A stretch of DNA of 64,000 bases, taken from assembly GCA_019058315.1 (NCBI GenBank), contig JAHPZH010000007.1, positions 32,001-96,000 of the forward strand, given 5' to 3'. Made by a program: the position numbers and the translations under genes. This document shows, one piece after another, positions 1 through 10,220 of this stretch (position 1 is its first letter; each line of letters opens with the position of its first letter). The notes beneath the pieces were generated by a model, which saw only the letters and a program-made list of their open reading frames with translations, searched no databases and was not told where the DNA came from. Origin of the DNA: Candidatus Helarchaeota archaeon (GTDB lineage: Archaea; Asgardarchaeota; Lokiarchaeia; Helarchaeales; RDOG01).

Positions 1-3000
1 TTCTTAATTTTCTCGCTTTCTACTTCTCTAACGAAATAAGGTATTTTTTTTAAGTTAAATTTCTTTTCTTTTTGTAATTTCAGGATTAAATTCAAATGTA
101 AATAATGATTTAATGTTCTTTTTATTATTTTTCTTATTTCTTTTTCATCATTACTATTAAAATCTCTAATATTTTGAATTAAAGAAGTAAAAAATTCCTC
201 AGTCAAATTAGAATTAAAATATTTCAAAATCTCACAATGCAAATCATACCATTTTGCCCTTATTCCTGGTTTGGTATATATTGATTTTTTAAAAATCTCT
301 ACAACCCTTTTAAGCAACTTTTTTTTAGTTATTGGATGAATCCCCTCTATTAAATCATATCCAATTTTTTCATAATAAGAAATTTTTTTGGATGAATTAT
401 CTTTATTCCAATTAAATTGGAAAAAATTGTAAGAATAACGTTCCAACATATTTAATAAATCCCTAAGAGAAGAAATCTTTTTACAAATATCCGTATTGAG
501 AAAATGTAAAAAAAATTCTTCAAAATTCTTAAAATTATCCTCGTAATTATTTTTAAAGAATCTTATCACACTTGGAATTCGCTTATTACCTCTTTGCTCT
601 TTTTTTACTCTTCCACCAAGATCTTCAAATATCTTTAAATTTATGTTTTTTGAATCTTGGATATAGATATAAAAACTATCTCCATGCCACAGACAAATAT
701 CAATAGATTGCCCATGTTTGGTATTATTTAAGAGCAAGCTTAAATCTTCCTTTTCAATATCTTTTTTAAACTTAAAGAGAACATATTTTACACCGAATTT
801 AGTCATTCCTTCTAAATAATATTGTAATTCAGAAGTTTTAGAATCAAAACTCAATTGAGTTTCCCTGATTAAATGGGGATAGCTGATACCTGAAAAATCA
901 AATTTAGGAAATTTTTTTCGTCTTAAGATGATGTCGCATTTTTCATTAGCATAACCATATAATTTCACATATTTTCCAAAGGATTTTTTTAGAAAAATTT
1001 CTGTATCAAAAACTGGCATGAGTTTATAGGGCTCAAATCTTCTGTTTCTATAAATATTACTATCGTAAACCATTTGTGTTAATATAATTATAGAATTTGT
1101 CTCCCTTGCAATGAATTTTAACATTGTGGTAAAATTTCCTGCAATGCTTGCCCTCTTCCAAGTAGGAGATAGTTCTTCGTTATCTCCATTGATGGGAATA
1201 TTTCTTTGAATCTGAGTAATTAATGAGTTAACTATAATTAATTTGGGATGAAATTTATTCTTAATATCAATTAACCTTTGTAAGATCGAGTCTATATTAT
1301 CATTGTCGGAAAATGGGATGAAATGGACTCTCTTAAGATTTTCAATATTATAATTTTTAAAATTTCTAGAGATATCAGCTAAATTTTTATAAAAAGGGAA
1401 TTTTAAGTTATTTAAACAAACTACACTTTCTGAATTTAACCCATCCTCATGTTGTGCTGCTAACATGAGGTAACAGATTAAATCCATTAACTGTTTTTCT
1501 TCGTTTTTGTGACAAAAAATTAAGTTAAAGGAACCACAATTAAATCCTTCAGCTCGGCTTTTTTTCCAGCCAAATATTTCGATCCTTGTTCCCTTTTGTA
1601 TATTACGACCTAATTCAATTTTACCGTCAGAGATAAGTCTGATTTCATTTTCTTTAGGGATCTTATCAACAACCTCTAACTCTTCCCCTGTCCAATCGAA
1701 CTTTTTCTGAAGTGGAGGGTATATAATAGCCAAATTCATTTTAATTATTTTTTTATTTAATAAAATCTCAGTACCCTCTTTAAATTCCTGAGAAACCTCA
1801 AAAAAGATATGATTTTGTTCAGTTACTAATTTATCAATATCGGTGAATGTAGGAAAACAAGGTTTTGTTTCTGGAATGTGATCTATTGATTTAGAATAAC
1901 CGCTCTCAACCACATTAAAGTAAGTTTTTTTAAGGGAGAAGTTTTCATGATATTCTTCTTCATAATGGGGTAATAAATCACAAATCTTAATCCTACTCAA
2001 GAATTCAATAAAACTAATATATTGACCCAGTTGTAAAAACTGATAACCGCCATCCACACATTTATTCATGGGATCTAATACAGTTAGAGCAGTTTTATGA
2101 CCCATGCTTTTATTAAAAATGTTGTGAAGGTCAATTTTTTTGGATGTTCGTATAGCTATTTCTTTTGTAGTCCAACAAATGATTTTAATATCTATGTTTT
2201 CTGGATTTCTTCCTAAGTTTTTAATCAAGGTATTTATTTTCCTAATTGGAATATCTTTTTTTAATTCAAATGCTGCATAATTAAATCCATTCCGAGTATT
2301 CCCAAATTCGTAAAAATAGAGTAGCTTCTCAGGATTTTTAAGGAGATTTTCTCTCCGTTTTAAAAATTTTTCCAACTCTTTTGTTTTATTTGGCTTTGAA
2401 TATGCACACACTTCACGGAAAAATTTAGCAAAATCTATATTTTTTATAAATCTGAAGATATTATAAAGATAAAATTCATAAAAATCAAACCAATCATTTA
2501 TATAATTATTTTCATTAATGGTCGCAATCCAATTTTTAAAATTCTTAAGATTTGGTCTACCATATTTATTAAAAAATTCATCTTCATCAACAATTTCGTT
2601 AACATATTGAATTGTTAAATCATAAGCTTCCCTTTCTTTGGAATATAAAAACTCCCCATTATGTTCTTCAAATAGACTTTTTATATTATTTAGGTCATTT
2701 TCAGATTCTATTACTGGGTGATGATCAAACCAGATTAATTTGAAATTAAAGTATCTGTCTTCAAGTTGCTCAAAAAATATTTTAAGGAATTTTTCTCGAC
2801 CTGGTAAGAATGGAATGTCTGCAACATAAATATAATTCATCATATCGTGCTTTAAAGACTTTAAAACTTTATTTTCAAGAACCTTTTCAATATAGTTTAG
2901 ACCATATCTATTTGTTGCTGGAAAGATCGATAATATGTTATTTTTTCCTTGATGTAGAAATGTCAAGTTTACAGCAGACTTAAAACCATCCTTATCAACA

Positions 3001-6000
3001 TGAGGAATAATGCAGACATTTATCCAAGGTTCTAACTCAGGAATTCCCTTCTCCTTAGGAGATAAGAAAAAATCTAAGATTGTTAGGGTATCTTGAATCA
3101 TAATATTTCTATAAAATAGATCTTCATCCTCCAACTCAATGTATTGGGGAATATTCCCATTTCCCAAAATAGAGTCAATTATATTTACAATATTAAAAAC
3201 CCATTTTGCTTCTTTTTTTGTTTCAAAGGCACAAAAAGGAATATATTCAATATTATTTTTTGATTTCAAGAATTGAGCAAGATTTTTAGCTTCGAGCTCC
3301 ATAATCTGGAGCATAGATAATTCTTTATTCTTATAATAGAATTTTTTTGAACATACATCTTGGAATAATGTATCTAGTTTTTTCTTTGCCTTACATTTAC
3401 TTGAAACATAAAATAATTCTCTCCCTAATTCGTCCATTCCCCTCCATACGTCTTTTCTAAAAATTCTATTATCTATAAACATTTCAACTAAATAATATCT
3501 TAATGGTGGTCTATAAGCATCCATGAAATCAAAAAGTAACTCCTTATTTTTCTTAGTCATTGCCCCATAAAAGGTCTCATTTCTTTTCCCGCTATTTGCA
3601 CGATAATGCAATATTCCAGGTCCAGGGAAAAATCGATTAAATCCGACTTTACCTAAAGCTTTGCCTGCTTCTTTTTGTAATAAAATATATAGATAATTCA
3701 AGCATGCATTAAACACATCATAAGCCTTTGCACCATAATAAAAAATTGTCTCGGCGTATCTCTGTGCTTGCCGGCCAACAAAGCGAAATTTTGGGGGTAA
3801 AGCCCGTTTGATCACTTCCCAAGCATTTTTTTCTGAATTTCCTTCAGCAGAACGTAATCTATTCATGATATCTATTATTTCTTGTTCATTATGAGGTTCA
3901 TAAGAAGCATTATAAAATAAATATGTTAAAAGCAACCAATCAAGTTGACCATAAAGGAGTTTATCTTGATATTTCTTTATAACCCACGGTTTGTTTAATT
4001 CTGTAATGAATTTCGAGACTAATTTTCTTGTATAAAGCACATTTGACATTATTTTTGCAAAAACCATTTGTCTACCGACTTCCATCAAATCCCCTTTTGC
4101 TCTCCGATCTATTATTTTATTTCTAATCAAACTCTCGGATCTTTCCCTTTTCTCCGCTTCAAGTATTTCTTCTTTGTTATGTTCAATTAATTCTATTCGA
4201 TGTAAGTCAATAAAATTCATTGCTTCTTTACTTATTGTCCCTCCGAATAATTCAATTCTTCCCACCGCATCTATAAAGTAACGTCTTTTATTACCAGATA
4301 TATAAAAACGAAATACTTTATCTTTCGAGTCATAATCAACCCGTAATTCATGTCGCTTTTTCACAATTAGATTGTACGCATAATTTTTAACATTAGCTAT
4401 TAAAAAGCCATTAATTTCTTTGATTTTATTAGTTATTTGTTTATAAATTCCTGTTTTTCCCTCAAACATTCCCCTCTCTCCCATATATACCACTAATTTA
4501 CAATTCTTACAAATTGATGCAACTCCATATATGGGAATTAATAGTGTATTTATTTCACCACATTCAGGGCATTTTGGTTTGTCATCATGAATTTCAAAAC
4601 TTTTAAATTGAATATATTTACGTTCTATTTCTTCAAAATCATCACATATTTTTTGCTTTGGAGAACGTTCTTTTTTCTTAAAATTACATCTATATCTACA
4701 ATTTATTCTCTTTCTTCGATCATGAGGATGTTTTTGCAAGTGTTGGCAATCTTTACATGTTTTTTCTTGAGATTTTTCAAAATATTTCTTTAAAAAATAT
4801 CGATATGGAGGTCTTCCTATTACTTGATATTCTTGAACACAAACAACTCTATCTGAAAGTTTATCTAAGTGTGCTCTAATTTTACGAAGACTAATATCAC
4901 CATAAAGATTCATATACAACTCTTTTACTGTTAGTCCATTTTTACCAGCTATTTCTAATAGCTTTAATATTTCTTCATCAAGCATTGAAGGAGCTTTATT
5001 TCTCCAATTAATCTTGTGACGCCAAATCCCCGGTTTTTTACCTTTCTTTTCGATTTCTTCTTTTTGGTAACGTCTATAGATCTTATTAAGGGTATGAAAT
5101 ATTGTCTTATTTTCATCAAATACTCTAGTAAAATCAACTTCGTAGTAATTTTGTCCCTTCTCTTTAACAATTTTTTCGACATATTCATGGATTCTGCAAC
5201 CTTCACAGAAGAGATATAATGATGCAGCAAGCCAAATACTGGTTTTTCGATAATTTTCAATATCTCCATCATAAAGTCCTTTTTTATAATTCTCTTTTTC
5301 TTCTTGTTCTAGATCCCAGCGATAATTCTGTAATAAATCTCGAATTTTATCTTTCTTTTCTAGTACATAATCCCTTTGAAGTGCTTTTAAATCTTGAAAC
5401 CTAGGGTCCTCTTTAAGAAGAATCTTTGTTGCAGTATTAGTAAGGATATTGATACAAGAGCTGGGCGAGGGCTTATTATTATATAAAAACAAAAATGAAA
5501 ATTCATCAGCAGTTAAAATATCAACTTGCGATTCAACTGCTGCCTCCCCTATATATGTGAGCCCCATCACCTTTTTACTTGATCTTATATAAATTGTGTT
5601 AAGCAGATCATTGACAATTCTCCTAAGTCTATATCGAACATATCTATGTGTTAATCTTGTAAATTCATCACGCGTTATTTTTTTCCTTATATCTTCTGTT
5701 TCTTTTTTATTAATTTTATATAATTCCAAATTTCTTTCATTTTTTGCCCTTAAAATGAGCTTTTTAATATATTTCTTCCATTTTTTAAAAGATATTTGAT
5801 GATAAAATAACCTTTCAATTGCTAACTTTTCAATATCTTTTAAAGTAATTCTGCTTCTAATCTCATCAAGCTTAAAACCTCTAAAACGAAAATTCTTAGG
5901 TATTTTTTCTGATTTTTGATCTTGCTCTTTTATTTTCTTATCCTTGATTAGAAGAATTTTCTCTTCAAAATCATTTTTCAATAATTTCGAAACAAAAAAT

Positions 6001-7292
6001 ATTATATTCCCTTCTTTTTCTCTGGTTCTACCAATCATTTGAGTAAGTTCAACTGAGTTATAAATTTCAGCATCAGTTATTAGTATTGTATGGATGTTCT
6101 TGATATCTACTCCAACTTCCAATACAGGACTGCAAAAAAGGAATCGAATTTTATCATCCTTCATAAATTCGTTAAATTTTCTTTTTCTAATCTCTAAATC
6201 CAACCCTGCATGTATGTAATCAACATGAAAAGCAACTTTTTTTTCATTAATAAATTGCATATATTCTTCAAATTCTCTACCATATTCAGTATCAAGATCT
6301 GAAAATACAGCATTTGCGATATAATTTTTTGGATTAACATATGGAACCTTACCAAAATTTTCCCATACGAACATAGCGAGGGCTTCTGCAATCCTACGGC
6401 TATAGGTGAAAATGAGCATTTTGCCAGAAGTTTTTTTATCATTTTTCACAATATCATATAAAAATTTCTCACAATGTTTCAATGTTCTAAATAGCTTTTC
6501 ATAATATGCCCTAATATTATCAAACTTTAAGCGAGTCTTAATGAACTTTTCAACATCTGAAAATTTGTATTTTTTCAATAACTTTTTTCTTTCCCTCTTC
6601 CATATATGTTTAAAATCACCATATTTCTTTTGAATTATTTCTCCTTTAAAATTTCGTTCATTTGATCTAAAAATAAGTTCACAATTAAATTTTTTAGCCC
6701 AATTTTCTGCTGATTTTCTTTCAAAACTCCCACTTAAAAAACAAAATTGAACATCTTCATGCTCACGCTGAATTTTATATAACATCGTTTCGAGTTTTAA
6801 GCCACGAGATCTTTCTCCTAATTTATGAGCTTCATCAATAATAACCGCTCCAAATATTTTCTTTCCATAGAAATATCTTCTCTTTTGTATCTCAAAAAGG
6901 AATGAGCGAAATGCTTCATATGTTGCGATAATTATTGCATTCCCCATAGCATTTCTTAAATCATCAAGAGCAGGTCTAATTTCTGCTTGTAATTTTAATA
7001 TTTTTATTTCTCTTTGATATTCTCTTTCTAATTCAATAGCTTTTTGATGTAAAAGCATCACTGTCGGAACCAAATATACAGGAATTAAATTTCTGACTAA
7101 AGCCATTGTAGTACAAATTTTTGCAATTTCGGTTTTACCCATACCTGTTGGTGCAACTACAAAAACACTTCGACCTTTAATTACAAATTTATATCCTTTT
7201 TTTTGATATTTATGTAGTTTGCTAAGTAAGAAATTTCTACGCTTCGAACTCTTGTCTGCCTTCTCAATATTTCTAGAAATCGTCTCAAACAT
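1..7292 (-). CDS. Giant multidomain protein (>=2430 aa, 3'-truncated by window): Ski2/Hel308-like helicase + wHTH + Cys/Zn modules + Cas1 + DHH/DHHA1 + degenerate RecA-like + second DHHA1-like
   Basis: Manual translation from ATG 7292 (MFETISRNIE...) to position 3 finds no stop. Helicase motifs: APTGMGKT (7131-7154), IIDEAH (DEAH 6825-6836), LSGS, LIFTYSRR, HAGL, LEVGVDI, QMIGRTR (6021-6041). Cas1 motifs: LRSAEG, FVGR..AYDVFNACLNYLY, GILH, LLFDFMDAYRP (~3230-4380). DHH motifs: HVDKDG (2985-3002), YVADIP, WFDHHP (DHH 2718-2726). Confidence 0.9.
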   Translation of the reverse strand, partial: MFETISRNIEKADKSSKRRNFLLSKLHKYQKKGYKFVIKGRSVFVVAPTGMGKTEIAKICTTMALVRNLIPVYLVPTVMLLHQKAIELEREYQREIKILKLQAEIRPALDDLRNAMGNAIIIATYEAFRSFLFEIQKRRYFYGKKIFGAVIIDEAHKLGERSRGLKLETMLYKIQREHEDVQFCFLSGSFERKSAENWAKKFNCELIFRSNERNFKGEIIQKKYGDFKHIWKRERKKLLKKYKFSDVEKFIKTRLKFDNIRAYYEKLFRTLKHCEKFLYDIVKNDKKTSGKMLIFTYSRRIAEALAMFVWENFGKVPYVNPKNYIANAVFSDLDTEYGREFEEYMQFINEKKVAFHVDYIHAGLDLEIRKRKFNEFMKDDKIRFLFCSPVLEVGVDIKNIHTILITDAEIYNSVELTQMIGRTREKEGNIIFFVSKLLKNDFEEKILLIKDKKIKEQDQKSEKIPKNFRFRGFKLDEIRSRITLKDIEKLAIERLFYHQISFKKWKKYIKKLILRAKNERNLELYKINKKETEDIRKKITRDEFTRLTHRYVRYRLRRIVNDLLNTIYIRSSKKVMGLTYIGEAAVESQVDILTADEFSFLFLYNNKPSPSSCINILTNTATKILLKEDPRFQDLKALQRDYVLEKKDKIRDLLQNYRWDLEQEEKENYKKGLYDGDIENYRKTSIWLAASLYLFCEGCRIHEYVEKIVKEKGQNYYEVDFTRVFDENKTIFHTLNKIYRRYQKEEIEKKGKKPGIWRHKINWRNKAPSMLDEEILKLLEIAGKNGLTVKELYMNLYGDISLRKIRAHLDKLSDRVVCVQEYQVIGRPPYRYFLKKYFEKSQEKTCKDCQHLQKHPHDRRKRINCRYRCNFKKKERSPKQKICDDFEEIERKYIQFKSFEIHDDKPKCPECGEINTLLIPIYGVASICKNCKLVVYMGERGMFEGKTGIYKQITNKIKEINGFLIANVKNYAYNLIVKKRHELRVDYDSKDKVFRFYISGNKRRYFIDAVGRIELFGGTISKEAMNFIDLHRIELIEHNKEEILEAEKRERSESLIRNKIIDRRAKGDLMEVGRQMVFAKIMSNVLYTRKLVSKFITELNKPWVIKKYQDKLLYGQLDWLLLTYLFYNASYEPHNEQEIIDIMNRLRSAEGNSEKNAWEVIKRALPPKFRFVGRQAQRYAETIFYYGAKAYDVFNACLNYLYILLQKEAGKALGKVGFNRFFPGPGILHYRANSGKRNETFYGAMTKKNKELLFDFMDAYRPPLRYYLVEMFIDNRIFRKDVWRGMDELGRELFYVSSKCKAKKKLDTLFQDVCSKKFYYKNKELSMLQIMELEAKNLAQFLKSKNNIEYIPFCAFETKKEAKWVFNIVNIIDSILGNGNIPQYIELEDEDLFYRNIMIQDTLTILDFFLSPKEKGIPELEPWINVCIIPHVDKDGFKSAVNLTFLHQGKNNILSIFPATNRYGLNYIEKVLENKVLKSLKHDMMNYIYVADIPFLPGREKFLKIFFEQLEDRYFNFKLIWFDHHPVIESENDLNNIKSLFEEHNGEFLYSKEREAYDLTIQYVNEIVDEDEFFNKYGRPNLKNFKNWIATINENNYINDWFDFYEFYLYNIFRFIKNIDFAKFFREVCAYSKPNKTKELEKFLKRRENLLKNPEKLLYFYEFGNTRNGFNYAAFELKKDIPIRKINTLIKNLGRNPENIDIKIICWTTKEIAIRTSKKIDLHNIFNKSMGHKTALTVLDPMNKCVDGGYQFLQLGQYISFIEFLSRIKICDLLPHYEEEYHENFSLKKTYFNVVESGYSKSIDHIPETKPCFPTFTDIDKLVTEQNHIFFEVSQEFKEGTEILLNKKIIKMNLAIIYPPLQKKFDWTGEELEVVDKIPKENEIRLISDGKIELGRNIQKGTRIEIFGWKKSRAEGFNCGSFNLIFCHKNEEKQLMDLICYLMLAAQHEDGLNSESVVCLNNLKFPFYKNLADISRNFKNYNIENLKRVHFIPFSDNDNIDSILQRLIDIKNKFHPKLIIVNSLITQIQRNIPINGDNEELSPTWKRASIAGNFTTMLKFIARETNSIIILTQMVYDSNIYRNRRFEPYKLMPVFDTEIFLKKSFGKYVKLYGYANEKCDIILRRKKFPKFDFSGISYPHLIRETQLSFDSKTSELQYYLEGMTKFGVKYVLFKFKKDIEKEDLSLLLNNTKHGQSIDICLWHGDSFYIYIQDSKNINLKIFEDLGGRVKKEQRGNKRIPSVIRFFKNNYEDNFKNFEEFFLHFLNTDICKKISSLRDLLNMLERYSYNFFQFNWNKDNSSKKISYYEKIGYDLIEGIHPITKKKLLKRVVEIFKKSIYTKPGIRAKWYDLHCEILKYFNSNLTEEFFTSLIQNIRDFNSNDEKEIRKIIKRTLNHYLHLNLILKLQKEKKFNLKKIPYFVREVESEKIK

Positions 7293-7594: not shown

Positions 7595-8620
7595 TCATAG
7601 AAAATTACCAGAATTAAGTTCACTTAATAAAAAATTTTTTTCTATTCCTTTATAATAACCTCTCGTAACAAGGCTACCCTCTAGAAATCCGATTTTCCTT
7701 AAAAAACTTTTTTTATCTTTTTTCCTTACGATTAATAAATGGGTATATTTATCATTGATTAAATAATTGATGTTAAAATGATTATGAATTTCTCCTATTT
7801 CATATAAGAAATCAAGATTTTTTTGAGCCCCAATAAGCCAAAATCTCTTATATTTTTTGGATACAGTTATACCCCCATCATCTGCCCAAAAACATCGAAG
7901 AAACTCTCGTTTAAATTCGGAAGGACCAGCCTTTATCACTTCTGGAACTTGAATATTATTTGATTTACAACTGTAAGATGGTGCATATTTCATTAAATCT
8001 TGAATAGCTAAAATTGAGTTGTAATTAATAGATACGCAATTTTTATGGTTTTCATCAAATATACCATTATTTTCAAGTCCATATACAGTTTTCACATCAT
8101 TGATAAACTGCTGAATTACTTTTGGTGATGAACAGATAAATCTAAAGTAATTATTTCCTTTTCTATCATTGACAGAACCATCAAAAAGCATATGACTAAT
8201 GATTCTTATTTTTTCAATTGTCATTTTCTCTTGTTCCTTTATTGGTTTATATCTACTTTCTTGAAACTCTTTTGACTTCCATTTTTGTTTCATTATACGA
8301 CTAAAATGAATTCGACTTTGTTCTCTTTTAGAGGGGGTTACATTTGCAAGCTTAGCCCCCTTACTACAACCCCAATTTGGGGGGAATACTACAAATTGGA
8401 AGTCATATTTTGATTTACTGATAATTTTCAGACACTCAATAAATAAAGATTCCGGAATTGTAGATATTCCAGATCTATAATTATATAAATTATTCTTTGG
8501 TATATCCATCTTAATTGAAAGTTGCTTAAAAGTAACTTTCTTCCTTAATAAATCAAAGAATTTCTTCAAATCTAGTTTTTCTAATTTAATCCTGTTTTCT
8601 TTTGTATTTCTACCTTTCAT
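7595..8620 (-). CDS. Free-standing double-motif LAGLIDADG (DOD/intein-type) endonuclease with N-terminal HTH
   Basis: IISHMLFDGSV and FLRCFWADDGGI motifs; N-terminal TFKQLSIKMDIPKNNLYNYRSG is HTH-like; no intein splice motifs. Confidence 0.75.
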   Translation of the reverse strand: MKGRNTKENRIKLEKLDLKKFFDLLRKKVTFKQLSIKMDIPKNNLYNYRSGISTIPESLFIECLKIISKSKYDFQFVVFPPNWGCSKGAKLANVTPSKREQSRIHFSRIMKQKWKSKEFQESRYKPIKEQEKMTIEKIRIISHMLFDGSVNDRKGNNYFRFICSSPKVIQQFINDVKTVYGLENNGIFDENHKNCVSINYNSILAIQDLMKYAPSYSCKSNNIQVPEVIKAGPSEFKREFLRCFWADDGGITVSKKYKRFWLIGAQKNLDFLYEIGEIHNHFNINYLINDKYTHLLIVRKKDKKSFLRKIGFLEGSLVTRGYYKGIEKNFLLSELNSGNFL

Positions 8621-8667: not shown

Positions 8668-9969
8668 TCATTTTAGAAAATTCGATAAAAACGTTTGATT
8701 CTTAAAAAAGAGGCGGTAATCAAATTTTTGCATGTTTTGTAATGTTTTTTTAGTTTTTCTCCCATATTTTTTTATAATATAGTTTTGCATCTCATCTGGG
8801 TCTACTGTATAAGGGACTTCAATCAAAATTATCCCATTTTCTTTACATATTTTTCTTTTTATTTGGTCTCTTTTTTGTTGTTTTTTGAATCTTTTTTCAG
8901 TGGAGTGGAAAAATGAGTTATATTCATAATGCTGTAATCCATTATATTCAAATGCTAGTTTTAATTCTCGATTATAGCCATCTAGATGCATTTTTTCAAT
9001 TTTATAATCTCCAAATTCAATTTGATATTTTTCCAAAATTGTTTTATCAAGAAAAACATCATTTAAGGTAGTCGTAGGAAATTCTTTTTCAAATATTGCT
9101 TCAAAATAGCACCGACAAATTCGTTCATTAAATCCTTTCATACAATTAGGACACCAATGCCCCCTTAGAACATGTGTAGGTCTTGCTTCCCAGATATTTT
9201 TACATGCTCCGCATTGCCATTTATATTTCATATTAACATAAATATATTTTTTAGATGTGGATATTTTAGATAAAAATTTCCCAGGATAACCAGTCTTTTC
9301 CAAACCTATATCATATGCTATTTTATGCATCTCTGTTATAGAATGTCTTGCTTTTCCAGAACATCTTGGACACCAAGAATCCCCTCTTCGGATATGATCT
9401 GCAGTTGTTTCCCAAATATAGCCGCATTTCCCACATTGCCACTCATATTTTGTGTCTGTATTAATGTATTCTTTTGATAAGAATTTTCCTGGCTTCCCCG
9501 TGTTTTTTATTCCCATATCATGGGCAGCCTTATACATGTCATCTATACTAAGTTGAAGATTTTTCGCACAATTTGGACACCAAGCCCCCCTTCTCACATG
9601 ATCTGCCCTTGATTCCCAAATATAATTACATTTTCCGCATTGCCATTCATATTTTGTGTTAACATTAATGTATTTTTTTGATAAGAATTTTCCTGGCTTT
9701 CCCGTCTTCTTTAGACCTACTTCATGGGCAGTTTTATGCATTTCATCTATAGTGAGCCTACGATTCCCAGCACAATTTGGACACCAGCCCCCTTGCTTTA
9801 CTGAATCTGCCGTAACTTTCCATATATAGTTGCATTTTCCGCATTGCCACTTGTATTTTGTTTTAATATCAATATATTTTTTTGATAAGAACTTTCCTGG
9901 CTTCCCTGTCTTTTTTATTCCTATATCATGAGCTGTTTTATGCATATTTTTTATATCATATTTTTTCAT
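8668..9969 (-). CDS. Four-repeat Zn-ribbon (treble-clef/DUF4379-like) protein with C-terminal PD-(D/E)xK (Vsr/DUF559-like) nuclease
   Basis: 4x KYxWQCGxCxxIW...WCPxC; C-terminal LDGYNRELKLAFEYNGLQHY...RDQIKRKICKENGIILIEVPY. ATG 9969 preferred over track TTG 9987 because an AGGTG SD precedes it. Confidence 0.8.
   Translation of the reverse strand: MKKYDIKNMHKTAHDIGIKKTGKPGKFLSKKYIDIKTKYKWQCGKCNYIWKVTADSVKQGGWCPNCAGNRRLTIDEMHKTAHEVGLKKTGKPGKFLSKKYINVNTKYEWQCGKCNYIWESRADHVRRGAWCPNCAKNLQLSIDDMYKAAHDMGIKNTGKPGKFLSKEYINTDTKYEWQCGKCGYIWETTADHIRRGDSWCPRCSGKARHSITEMHKIAYDIGLEKTGYPGKFLSKISTSKKYIYVNMKYKWQCGACKNIWEARPTHVLRGHWCPNCMKGFNERICRCYFEAIFEKEFPTTTLNDVFLDKTILEKYQIEFGDYKIEKMHLDGYNRELKLAFEYNGLQHYEYNSFFHSTEKRFKKQQKRDQIKRKICKENGIILIEVPYTVDPDEMQNYIIKKYGRKTKKTLQNMQKFDYRLFFKNQTFLSNFLK
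9140..9960 (-). repeat. Intragenic tandem repeat, 4 units of ~204-207 bp
   Basis: GATAAGAA(T/C)TTTCCTGGCTT at 9476, 9680 and 9884 (204-bp period), with a degenerate copy at 9269. Confidence 0.9.
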
Positions 9970-10220
9970 ATAAACACCTAATTTCAAGATTTTTTTACTT
10001 AATAATATTATAGAATGCGCAGAATATATGTTTTGTTATATATAAAGAAGAGTTTTTGCGCAAATTTAATTTAAGGGTTATTAATTTTTCCATTAATTTT
10101 CATTATCTATTTATAGAATTCCATTAGGTAATTCTGGGTCACTTAAAAGGAGTAATAACAAAATAGATAATATTCAATTAATTATTAAAAAAAAAGTAAT
10201 GGAAAATAAACAGTGAAGAT

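Follow-up and report, generated by a model that had tools for sequence, protein, structure and literature searches.

The window analysed here, a stretch of 64,000 nucleotides from the genome of a Candidatus Helarchaeota archaeon, opens with most of a minus-strand gene for a giant protein that combines a superfamily 2 (SF2) helicase, a Cas1 domain and a DHH/DHHA1 phosphoesterase region in one chain. Profile comparison and a structure model indicate that residues ~1421-1777 of this giant are a divergent DHH/DHHA1 two-domain fold, followed by a degenerate RadA/Rad51-like ATPase domain. With confidence slightly above even, we favour the reading that the giant is an 'aCas1', i.e., a Cas1 protein that does not depend on CRISPR, in which a DHH plus RadA-like module sits on a helicase-Cas1 core and the DHH domain would process DNA ends. 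By analogy with known DHH nucleases, its most likely role would be that of a metal-dependent exonuclease on single-stranded DNA (ssDNA) that works with the N-terminal helicase, and the giant probably serves a mobile-element or recombination machine. The gene and its domains are laid out as follows.

G000:C7:30992-39292 (= L004:6992-15292), minus strand: full giant gene, a single open reading frame of 2766 residues, of which window 3-7292 covers residues 1-2430, the rest lying outside the window
Window 5973..7220, minus strand: SF2 helicase (DEAD/DEAH plus Helicase_C, Hel308/Ski2-like), residues ~25-440 (PF00270 E 2.4e-19, PF00271 E 1.4e-13)
Window 3252..4322, minus strand: Cas1 domain, residues ~991-1347 (PF01867 E 1.6e-11 with the excised region, TIGR00287 E 9.5e-16)
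Window 2583..3032, minus strand: predicted DHH catalytic domain, residues ~1421-1570 (motifs I-III, AlphaFold2 model, profile comparison)
Window 2328..2582, minus strand: residues ~1571-1655, a helical linker or insert (~85 residues) that separates the DHH from the DHHA1 lobe (model helices 160-242)
Window 1962..2327, minus strand: predicted DHHA1 domain, residues ~1656-1777, containing the SxRS-type strand IAIR1715TS and a GGGH motif reduced to G1731-H1732 (model and alignment)
Window 1068..1448, minus strand: degenerate RadA/Rad51-like ATPase core, aligned residues ~1949-2075 (hhalign to the RadA domain of the protein L021 described below)
Window 612..830, minus strand: residues 2155-2227, possibly a further DHHA1-like segment that is incomplete (a weak match, 14.4 bits)

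The helicase domain keeps its Walker A motif (APTGMGKT) and DEAH box, and in a PADLOC scan it partially matches the Hachiman protein HamB (E 2e-15). In the Cas1 domain, a glutamate (..AEG..), a histidine (..ILH..) and an acidic residue (..DFMDAYR..) align with the catalytic positions in Cas1 of A. fulgidus and in a casposase (PDB codes: 4n06, 6opm). The DHH and DHHA1 region as delimited here, residues 1421-1777, covers window 1962-3032 on the minus strand, in agreement with the interval 1975-3030 given in a preliminary description of this DNA. That description had also held the phosphoesterase to be fused after Cas1, and the DHH region is indeed C-terminal to the Cas1 match (residues 991-1347) within one open reading frame.

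All four motifs quoted in the preliminary description are present in a single minus-strand frame, and motifs I-III are invariant across the homologues. Motif I is IIPHVDKDGFKSA, which contains H1431-x-D1433-x-D1435-G (H1431, D1433 and D1435 at window 3002-2988). In motif II, IYVADIP, D1492 (window 2819-2817) ends a hydrophobic strand, and motif III, WFDHHP, provides D1523, H1524 and H1525 (window 2726-2718). The DHHA1 motif, IAIRTSKK...SMGHKTA, contains R1715 (window 2150-2148) and G1731-H1732 (window 2102-2097). Searched as a single sequence, the DHH region of the giant gives no Pfam match even at an expectation value (E) of 10 and no relevant match in NCBIfam or among PDB sequences; a family hidden Markov model (HMM) of eight sequences finds no match in the PDB sequences either. 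A PF01368 scan of the whole genome returns nine other DHH proteins and none of the giant paralogues, while four of the eight family members have sub-threshold PF01368 matches (best E 9e-4). Since the domain of the giant does not reach the gathering thresholds of PF01368 and PF02272, its membership in the superfamily rests on profile-profile and fold evidence.

The profile check suggested in the preliminary description supports the assignment. Using hhalign, the family matches the canonical DHH proteins of this genome with 95.8% probability in an alignment that spans motifs I-III, and it matches 19 stand-alone Asgard DHH-DHHA1 proteins with 97.5% probability (E 6.5e-12), here over 272 columns that reach from motif I to the GH. 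Motif III of the giant is aligned to that of the canonical DHH proteins, and its GH to the GGH of the stand-alone proteins, one of which was checked in Pfam and matches PF02272 (DHHA1) at E 7e-9. A single-sequence AlphaFold2 prediction of the DHH region was unusable, with a predicted local distance difference test (pLDDT) value of 41. With eight aligned homologues, the pLDDT is 80.1 and the predicted template modelling score 0.75, and in the model two alpha/beta lobes are joined by a helical linker. The top 50 Foldseek matches of this model are all DHH/DHHA1 proteins (best E 2e-8, probability 1.00), led by an NrnA-like H. pylori protein; DhhP, P. furiosus RecJ, PAP phosphatase, TM1595, Rv2837c, GdpP, RecJ2, GAN and bacterial RecJ are also found. 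VIA-align places the DHH domain of PF0399/HAN (PDB code: 5yh1) at Z 16.1 (306 residues, root-mean-square deviation 4.1, 14% identity), RecJ, GAN and RecJ2 at Z 13-14 and Cdc45 at Z 11-13. Across the DHH family its scores range from Z 16.1 to 10 over 240-306 residues, and the first unrelated Rossmann-like folds appear at Z ~9.7 with one lobe covered. In a protein-language-model Atlas, the nearest clusters of the domain are generic DHH phosphoesterases, which we take as a lead only. Thus, a DHH fold is predicted, and the models and searches place it within the DHH family.

There are five giant paralogues in this genome, i.e., the window copy, C1, C6, C11a and C11b. For the analysis of conservation, 14 sequences were aligned, namely two stand-alone relatives and 12 fusions of 23-50% identity. 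H-x-D-x-DG, the Asp of motif II and W-x-DHH form nearly the sole invariant columns. The Gly-His of DHHA1 is kept in nine of the 12 fusions (one exception reads AH), and the Arg likewise in most members. In the comparison of C11a with C11b, the DHH core has a ratio of nonsynonymous to synonymous substitution rates (dN/dS) of 0.10 and DHH-DHHA1 one of 0.13, no higher than in the helicase (0.13) or Cas1 (0.15). The alignment and these ratios indicate that the metal-binding motifs I-III and the Arg and Gly-His of DHHA1 are under purifying selection. Because motifs I-III are invariant, the DHHA1 residues are mostly kept and dN/dS is low, the DHH domain of the giant is probably catalytically active. 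Taken jointly with the reading given at the outset, and with the same modest lean in its favour, we suggest that the domain belongs to an Asgard-specific DHH subfamily, which would be recognisable by its long helical linker besides the signatures H-x-D-x-DGF and W-x-DHH. Weak second DHHA1-like matches similar to that at residues 2155-2227 are also seen in C6 (two) and in the homologue P0004.

The closest canonical relative of the DHH region is found in the same genome, and it is itself fused to a recombinase. This protein, L021, has 651 residues, with DHH-DHHA1 in its N-terminal and a Rad51/RadA ATPase in its C-terminal part. Scored with the family HMM against canonical DHH proteins, L021 reaches 42.5 bits and L030, a stand-alone DHH protein of 353 residues from a related genome, 35.2 bits; the rest are below 5 bits. 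Two loci on contig C1 are needed for the comparison.

L032:6162-8114 (= G000:C1:380162-382114), plus strand: L021 DHH-RadA fusion (PF08423 E 2.8e-28, intact GKT Walker A)
L012:4417-8736 (= G000:C1:395420-399841), minus strand: C1 paralogue of the giant, with leucine-rich repeat (LRR) and GNAT gene neighbours

The region of the giant that directly follows DHHA1 matches the RadA part of L021 in hhalign (75%, E 2.5e-5) and in blastp (E 0.014). In this RadA-like domain the Walker B segment reads LIIVNSL, with Asp replaced by Asn, and a GKT P-loop, which was looked for, is not found. The Atlas neighbours of the C-terminal 966 residues of the giant are Rad51/KaiC clusters (score 0.83), again as a lead only. 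The C1 paralogue (1474 residues) consists of helicase and Cas1 and ends right after Cas1, without DHH and without the RadA-like domain. Since C1 lacks both and L021 joins DHH to RadA, the two would be one module joined to a helicase-Cas1 core, and by these sequences they look like a single captured module. The DHH domain thus appears to go with the RadA-like domain and not with Cas1 as such, a connection that the preliminary description had overlooked. We infer that the module ties the DHH domain to ssDNA and recombination more than to Cas1 itself. Among 400 Asgard genomes, an open reading frame of RadA size around a match of the stand-alone type occurs in this genome only (L021), and a word-based homologue search with the L021 protein returns itself only.

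Stand-alone DHH relatives of ~330 residues are present in 46 of the 400 Asgard genomes. They are two-domain proteins of ~320-370 residues, i.e., of the size of NrnA, and profile-profile alignment shows that they share the helical linker of the giant. Their neighbourhoods are uninformative, with unknown proteins and an OPT transporter. A further stand-alone relative lies at G000:C11:595284-596216 on the plus strand, with 41% identity to the DHH part of L021 and one TAG interruption; a Hel308-like helicase gene (C11:603069-605306) is ~8 kb away.

The fusion family is rare, with six representatives among 1.84 billion proteins, two clusters in a set of 5.8 billion, and members in four of the 400 Asgard genomes (three matches in G123). 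The genome of the giant (5.8 Mb, 12 contigs, ~29% GC, 94% complete) contains no Cas2 (PF09827), a model that does match in control genomes. No CRISPR array is found in the window, and the only repeats that k-mer spacing picks up across the genome are coding tandem repeats of 3-4 copies, though arrays in assembly gaps are possible. Its Cas1 matches are the five giant paralogues only, and the surroundings of four homologous loci from other samples contain no called cas genes. Neither the DHH and RadA-like parts of the giant nor L021 and the neighbouring genes are covered by a PADLOC model.

Three of the paralogues stand beside TnpB genes. At C6, C11a and C11b, TnpB (PF01385/PF07282; OrfB_IS605 and/or a Cas12f-like TNB domain) lies divergently upstream of the giant. 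Over 8.1 kb, C11a and C11b are 81% identical in nucleotide sequence. The similarity sets in ~110 nt after the TnpB stop, and on the right a contig end cuts it off. Downstream of that stop is a GC-rich segment of ~110 nt that is conserved between the two copies and ends in GGTAGTTCAT, after which the copies diverge. The same GGTAGTTCAT is also found at the TnpB stop in C6.

L010:2151-2263 and L011:3914-4027: GC-rich segment ending in GGTAGTTCAT, conserved between C11a and C11b; the motif is also in L009 near 2860-2872

By its position and conservation, this segment looks like a TnpB guide-RNA scaffold that would mark the end of the element. The published GTTCACTCA motif is not found at these TnpB ends. 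As another candidate marker, the 9-mer GGTAGTTCA at the TnpB ends was rejected, with 24 occurrences in the genome against ~29 expected. A PolB gene (PF00136 E 7.8e-56; L009:171-2759, minus strand) adjoins TnpB and the giant at C6 only, and recalls the Cas1 plus PolB pair of casposons. Behind the giant gene, two metagenomic homologues carry a RadA/Rad51 gene (L006, 9077-10069, minus strand) and a MerR plus serine resolvase gene of the IS607 TnpA type (L008, 8363-8959, minus strand), respectively. The neighbours of the window copy and one recurring neighbour are listed here.

Window 7595..8620, minus strand: upstream gene for a LAGLIDADG-type protein, 341 residues (PF14528 E 2.2e-7)
Window 8668..9987, minus strand: upstream gene for a protein with repeated treble-clef Zn-fingers, 439 residues, with a weak DUF2726 nuclease-like C-terminus (domain scan)
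L004:6373-6894 (window locus) and L010:10417-10953 (C11a locus), both minus strand: winged-helix/coiled-coil protein, 55% protein and 70% nucleotide identity between the two

The last of these, a protein of ~175 residues (173 at the window locus) with a weak TBPIP/Hop2-type winged helix and a coiled coil, adjoins the 3' end of the giant, and its orientation relative to the giant at the window locus is opposite to that at the C11a locus. It is suggestive to find a Hop2-like partner beside a RadA-like domain. The window locus is bordered on its 3' side by huge HEAT/PBS-lyase repeat proteins of 1516 residues (L004:82-4632, plus strand) and 557 residues (4606-6279, minus strand). Within the Zn-finger gene, a 204-nt unit is repeated in 2.8 copies with 79% match (window 9366-9930) and encodes treble-clef/CapR-like modules.

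We suggest the following mechanism for the giant. The Hel308-like SF2 helicase would unwind DNA at an end or break, and the DHH/DHHA1 region would digest one strand as a two-metal ssDNA exonuclease, as RecJ does with RecQ and HAN with Hef. Cas1 integrases need DNA ends with a free 3'-OH. The resulting single-stranded 3'-OH end could be used by the Cas1 domain, or alternatively the RadA-like domain, dead as an ATPase, might pass the processed end on to host recombination and host RadA. The process would serve the mobility or homing of an element paired with a site-specific nuclease, i.e., TnpB for three paralogues and LAGLIDADG for the window copy. The analysis shows the fold, the conservation of the motifs, the selection on them, the structure of the module, the lack of CRISPR and the TnpB genes nearby; what the domain acts on, in which polarity, and how the end would reach Cas1 or RadA are inferred. 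A role in DNA transactions and recombination is argued for because the same chain holds a helicase and Cas1, the nearest relative is fused to RadA, and a RadA-like remnant follows DHHA1. The mobile-element view is taken because there are five paralogues, a patchy distribution, TnpB adjacency and a duplicated C11a/C11b unit. More tentatively, and as a possibility we would not back at present, the giant may be part of a self-contained Asgard machine for DNA capture or homing, in which TnpB or LAGLIDADG makes the break, helicase and DHH carry out resection, and Cas1 with the RadA-like domain performs insertion or copying.

Several observations weigh against an active, DNA end-processing DHH domain in a mobile element. 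The Asp of motif IV has no invariant counterpart in the giants, where the region is gapped and an acidic residue is loosely placed, and without a conserved motif IV the activity, as judged from the alignment, could be altered or lost. The giant has an acidic cluster of its own, D1571-E1574, at the expected place, and most members have an acidic residue nearby; the canonical proteins and the stand-alone Asgard relatives retain the Asp (YGAIGD, LYDS, ISDF), with YGAIGD in the stand-alone relatives. An earlier candidate for motif IV, D1558 (EAYD), was dropped, as alignment with canonical proteins puts motif IV one helix later. The 'intact-looking' phosphoesterase of the preliminary description is therefore an apt term for motifs I-III and, within DHHA1, for Arg and Gly-His, and not clearly so for motif IV. 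In addition, two distant members read GF at the Gly-His position, and the lowest Foldseek E-values belong to nucleotide phosphodiesterases of the NrnA/DhhP type and not to RecJ. With regard to mobility, the paralogue proteins are 31-43% identical and thus old, unlike a recently active transposon. The window copy has no TnpB, with LAGLIDADG and Zn-finger genes upstream instead, and the search for terminal inverted repeats and target-site duplications at the window copy and C11a gave only chance-level AT-rich matches of 71-85%. Some neighbourhoods also resemble defence islands, with Schlafen/AlbA_2 and IrrE-like genes near L021 and a helicase plus MZB gene near P0004.

These points lead to the rival explanations. 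The preliminary description had proposed that the DHH domain trims prespacers for Cas1, i.e., that it is a CRISPR adaptation accessory like Cas4 or DnaQ/DEDDh, and this we now regard as exceedingly improbable. The domain is fused directly after a Cas1 with catalytic positions that align to Cas1 and casposase, and the structure closest to it, that of HAN, belongs to a 3'->5' exonuclease (PMC6158738), the direction in which prespacers are trimmed. However, no Cas2 occurs in a genome that is 94% complete, no array is found in the window or genome, and the sole Cas1 matches are the five giants, three of them beside TnpB, with four homologous loci lacking called cas genes. Since there is neither Cas2 nor an array, the DHH domain would not be a CRISPR spacer trimmer; what stays reasonable, as far as the sequence goes, is a nucleic-acid end-processing role beside Cas1. 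A regulatory or clean-up phosphodiesterase of the NrnA/GdpP/DhhP/MAD-like kind, acting on pAp, nanoRNA and other short oligonucleotides or cyclic (oligo)nucleotides, would fit the lowest Foldseek E-values (NrnA-like, DhhP, PAP phosphatase, TM1595, GdpP), the nearest Atlas clusters, the NrnA-like size and two domains of the stand-alone relatives, and the occurrence of DHH nucleases that degrade cyclic tetra-adenylate (cA4) around type III CRISPR (PMC8284326). We find it distinctly unlikely, since the partner domains (helicase, Cas1, RadA-like) all act on DNA, the nearest relative is RadA-fused, VIA ranks HAN, RecJ and GAN no lower than the NrnA type, and Pfam, NCBIfam and PADLOC scans of the giant reveal no cyclase or sensor domain.

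It is highly unlikely that the domain is a non-catalytic scaffold comparable to Cdc45 in the CMG helicase, which would bind ssDNA or brace the helicase with no chemistry. Cdc45 has lost the metal-ligand residues of DHH, whereas all 12 fusions, at only 23-50% identity, keep motifs I-III and the DHH core has a dN/dS of 0.10; this has to be set against the structural matches to Cdc45 and GAN (Z 11-14), the lack of a conserved motif IV and the adjoining RadA-like domain, which is already without ATPase motifs and so shows that domain inactivation occurs in the giant. Finally, the helicase and DHH domain could degrade invading DNA as a defence effector (Cas3- or Hachiman-like), with Cas1 recruited for a task other than integration. 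Such a role is unlikely, even though the helicase resembles HamB, the family is patchy with many paralogues, and nuclease-rich or defence-like neighbours are seen at some loci. Makarova 2020 reportedly predicts non-programmable defence for some Asgard Cas1 systems. Here, no PADLOC model covers the DHH domain, the RadA-like part or the neighbours, and TnpB adjacency together with the duplicated unit of TnpB and giant suits a mobile element better.

The findings from this study improve the picture of the giant in two respects, i.e., among canonical proteins its DHH domain is closest to a DHH-RadA fusion encoded by this very genome, and a degenerate RadA-like domain comes directly after DHHA1. 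The link to L021 suggests that archaeal DNA metabolism includes a nuclease-recombinase module that has gone unrecognised. A Cas1-DHH fusion or a DHH-RadA module is not mentioned in the literature examined, to which Makarova et al. 2020 (CRISPR J), a survey of Asgard Cas1, did not belong, and priority for the Cas1-DHH description is uncertain. Asgard archaea would have found a different solution to end processing around a Cas1 integrase, outside CRISPR, and the DHH domain of the giant offers concrete catalytic residues that can be tested. If the capture or homing machine outlined above is real, mobile elements built on Cas1 would gain a new class, with the first DHH nuclease to serve a Cas1 integrase. 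The machine would also be a natural analogue of the set of Cas1, trimming nuclease and helicase from which CRISPR adaptation could assemble. If the giant unwinds, trims and integrates alone, it bears on the origins of casposons and CRISPR adaptation and might attract interest as a single-chain DNA insertion enzyme.

Compared with known systems, the DHH domain of the giant is not RecJ, GAN, HAN or NrnA proper, and it is neither part of a CRISPR adaptation module nor a casposon. DHH exonucleases are known to act with helicases, as in RecJ-RecQ, GAN-MCM/GINS and HAN-Hef (PMC6158738, PMC5717133), and HAN is a 3'->5' ssDNA exonuclease that is the partner of the helicase-nuclease Hef (PMC6158738). 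Like the DHH region of the giant, HAN (PF0399/TK0155), its best VIA match, is an archaeal DHH-DHHA1 protein tied to an SF2 helicase. However, HAN has N-terminal DnaJ-Zn, S1 and OB domains and is separate from its helicase, whereas the giant is one chain with an unclear motif IV. RecJ, GAN and RecJ2 share with it the two-lobed DHH plus DHHA1 fold, the D-x-D-G of motif I and a functional helicase partner. They differ in that no OB fold or CID insert is detected in the giant, and the RecJ-like proteins of this genome score below 5 bits with the family HMM. The NrnA, GdpP, DhhP and PAP-phosphatase types resemble it in fold (Foldseek E 2e-8 to 1e-6), in the DHHA1 Arg strand and in the G-H motif. 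These proteins have ~320 residues, small-molecule or nanoRNA substrates, a short linker and GGGH, whereas the giant has a linker of ~85 residues, GH and a context of DNA enzymes. The stand-alone Asgard DHH-DHHA1 proteins and L021 share H-x-D-x-DG, W-x-DHH and the helical linker with the giant, and L021 also the order of DHH and then RadA; they are different in size (320-650 residues) and have no helicase or Cas1, and the RadA of L021 keeps GKT whereas that of the giant is degenerate. The DHH nucleases linked to CRISPR (MAD and the CorA-associated DHH of type III systems) degrade cyclic oligoadenylates (PMC8284326), and their context is unrelated to that of the giant.

On the side of Cas1, this integrase works with Cas2 and with nucleases of the Cas4, DnaQ or Cas3 type. 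Cas4-Cas1 fusions, Cas2-DEDDh and the I-F Cas1 with Cas2/3 follow the same logic as the giant, i.e., an integrase with an end-preparing nuclease (in I-F also a helicase). In these CRISPR pairs the nuclease is PD-(D/E)xK, DnaQ or HD, whereas the giant uses DHH in one polypeptide, with no Cas2 or array. It differs from casposons in that no PolB is beside the window copy and no terminal inverted repeats were found. In the published Asgard aCas1-TnpB loci (Cas1H-Asgard-1/-2), aCas1 has been proposed as a transposase (Altae-Tran et al. 2023, PMC10691335); DHH is not mentioned in the text of that paper (0 occurrences). The window copy differs from these loci in being without TnpB. The likeness lies in an Asgard-specific, divergent Cas1 that is not linked to CRISPR and in the TnpB genes beside three of the paralogues in this genome.

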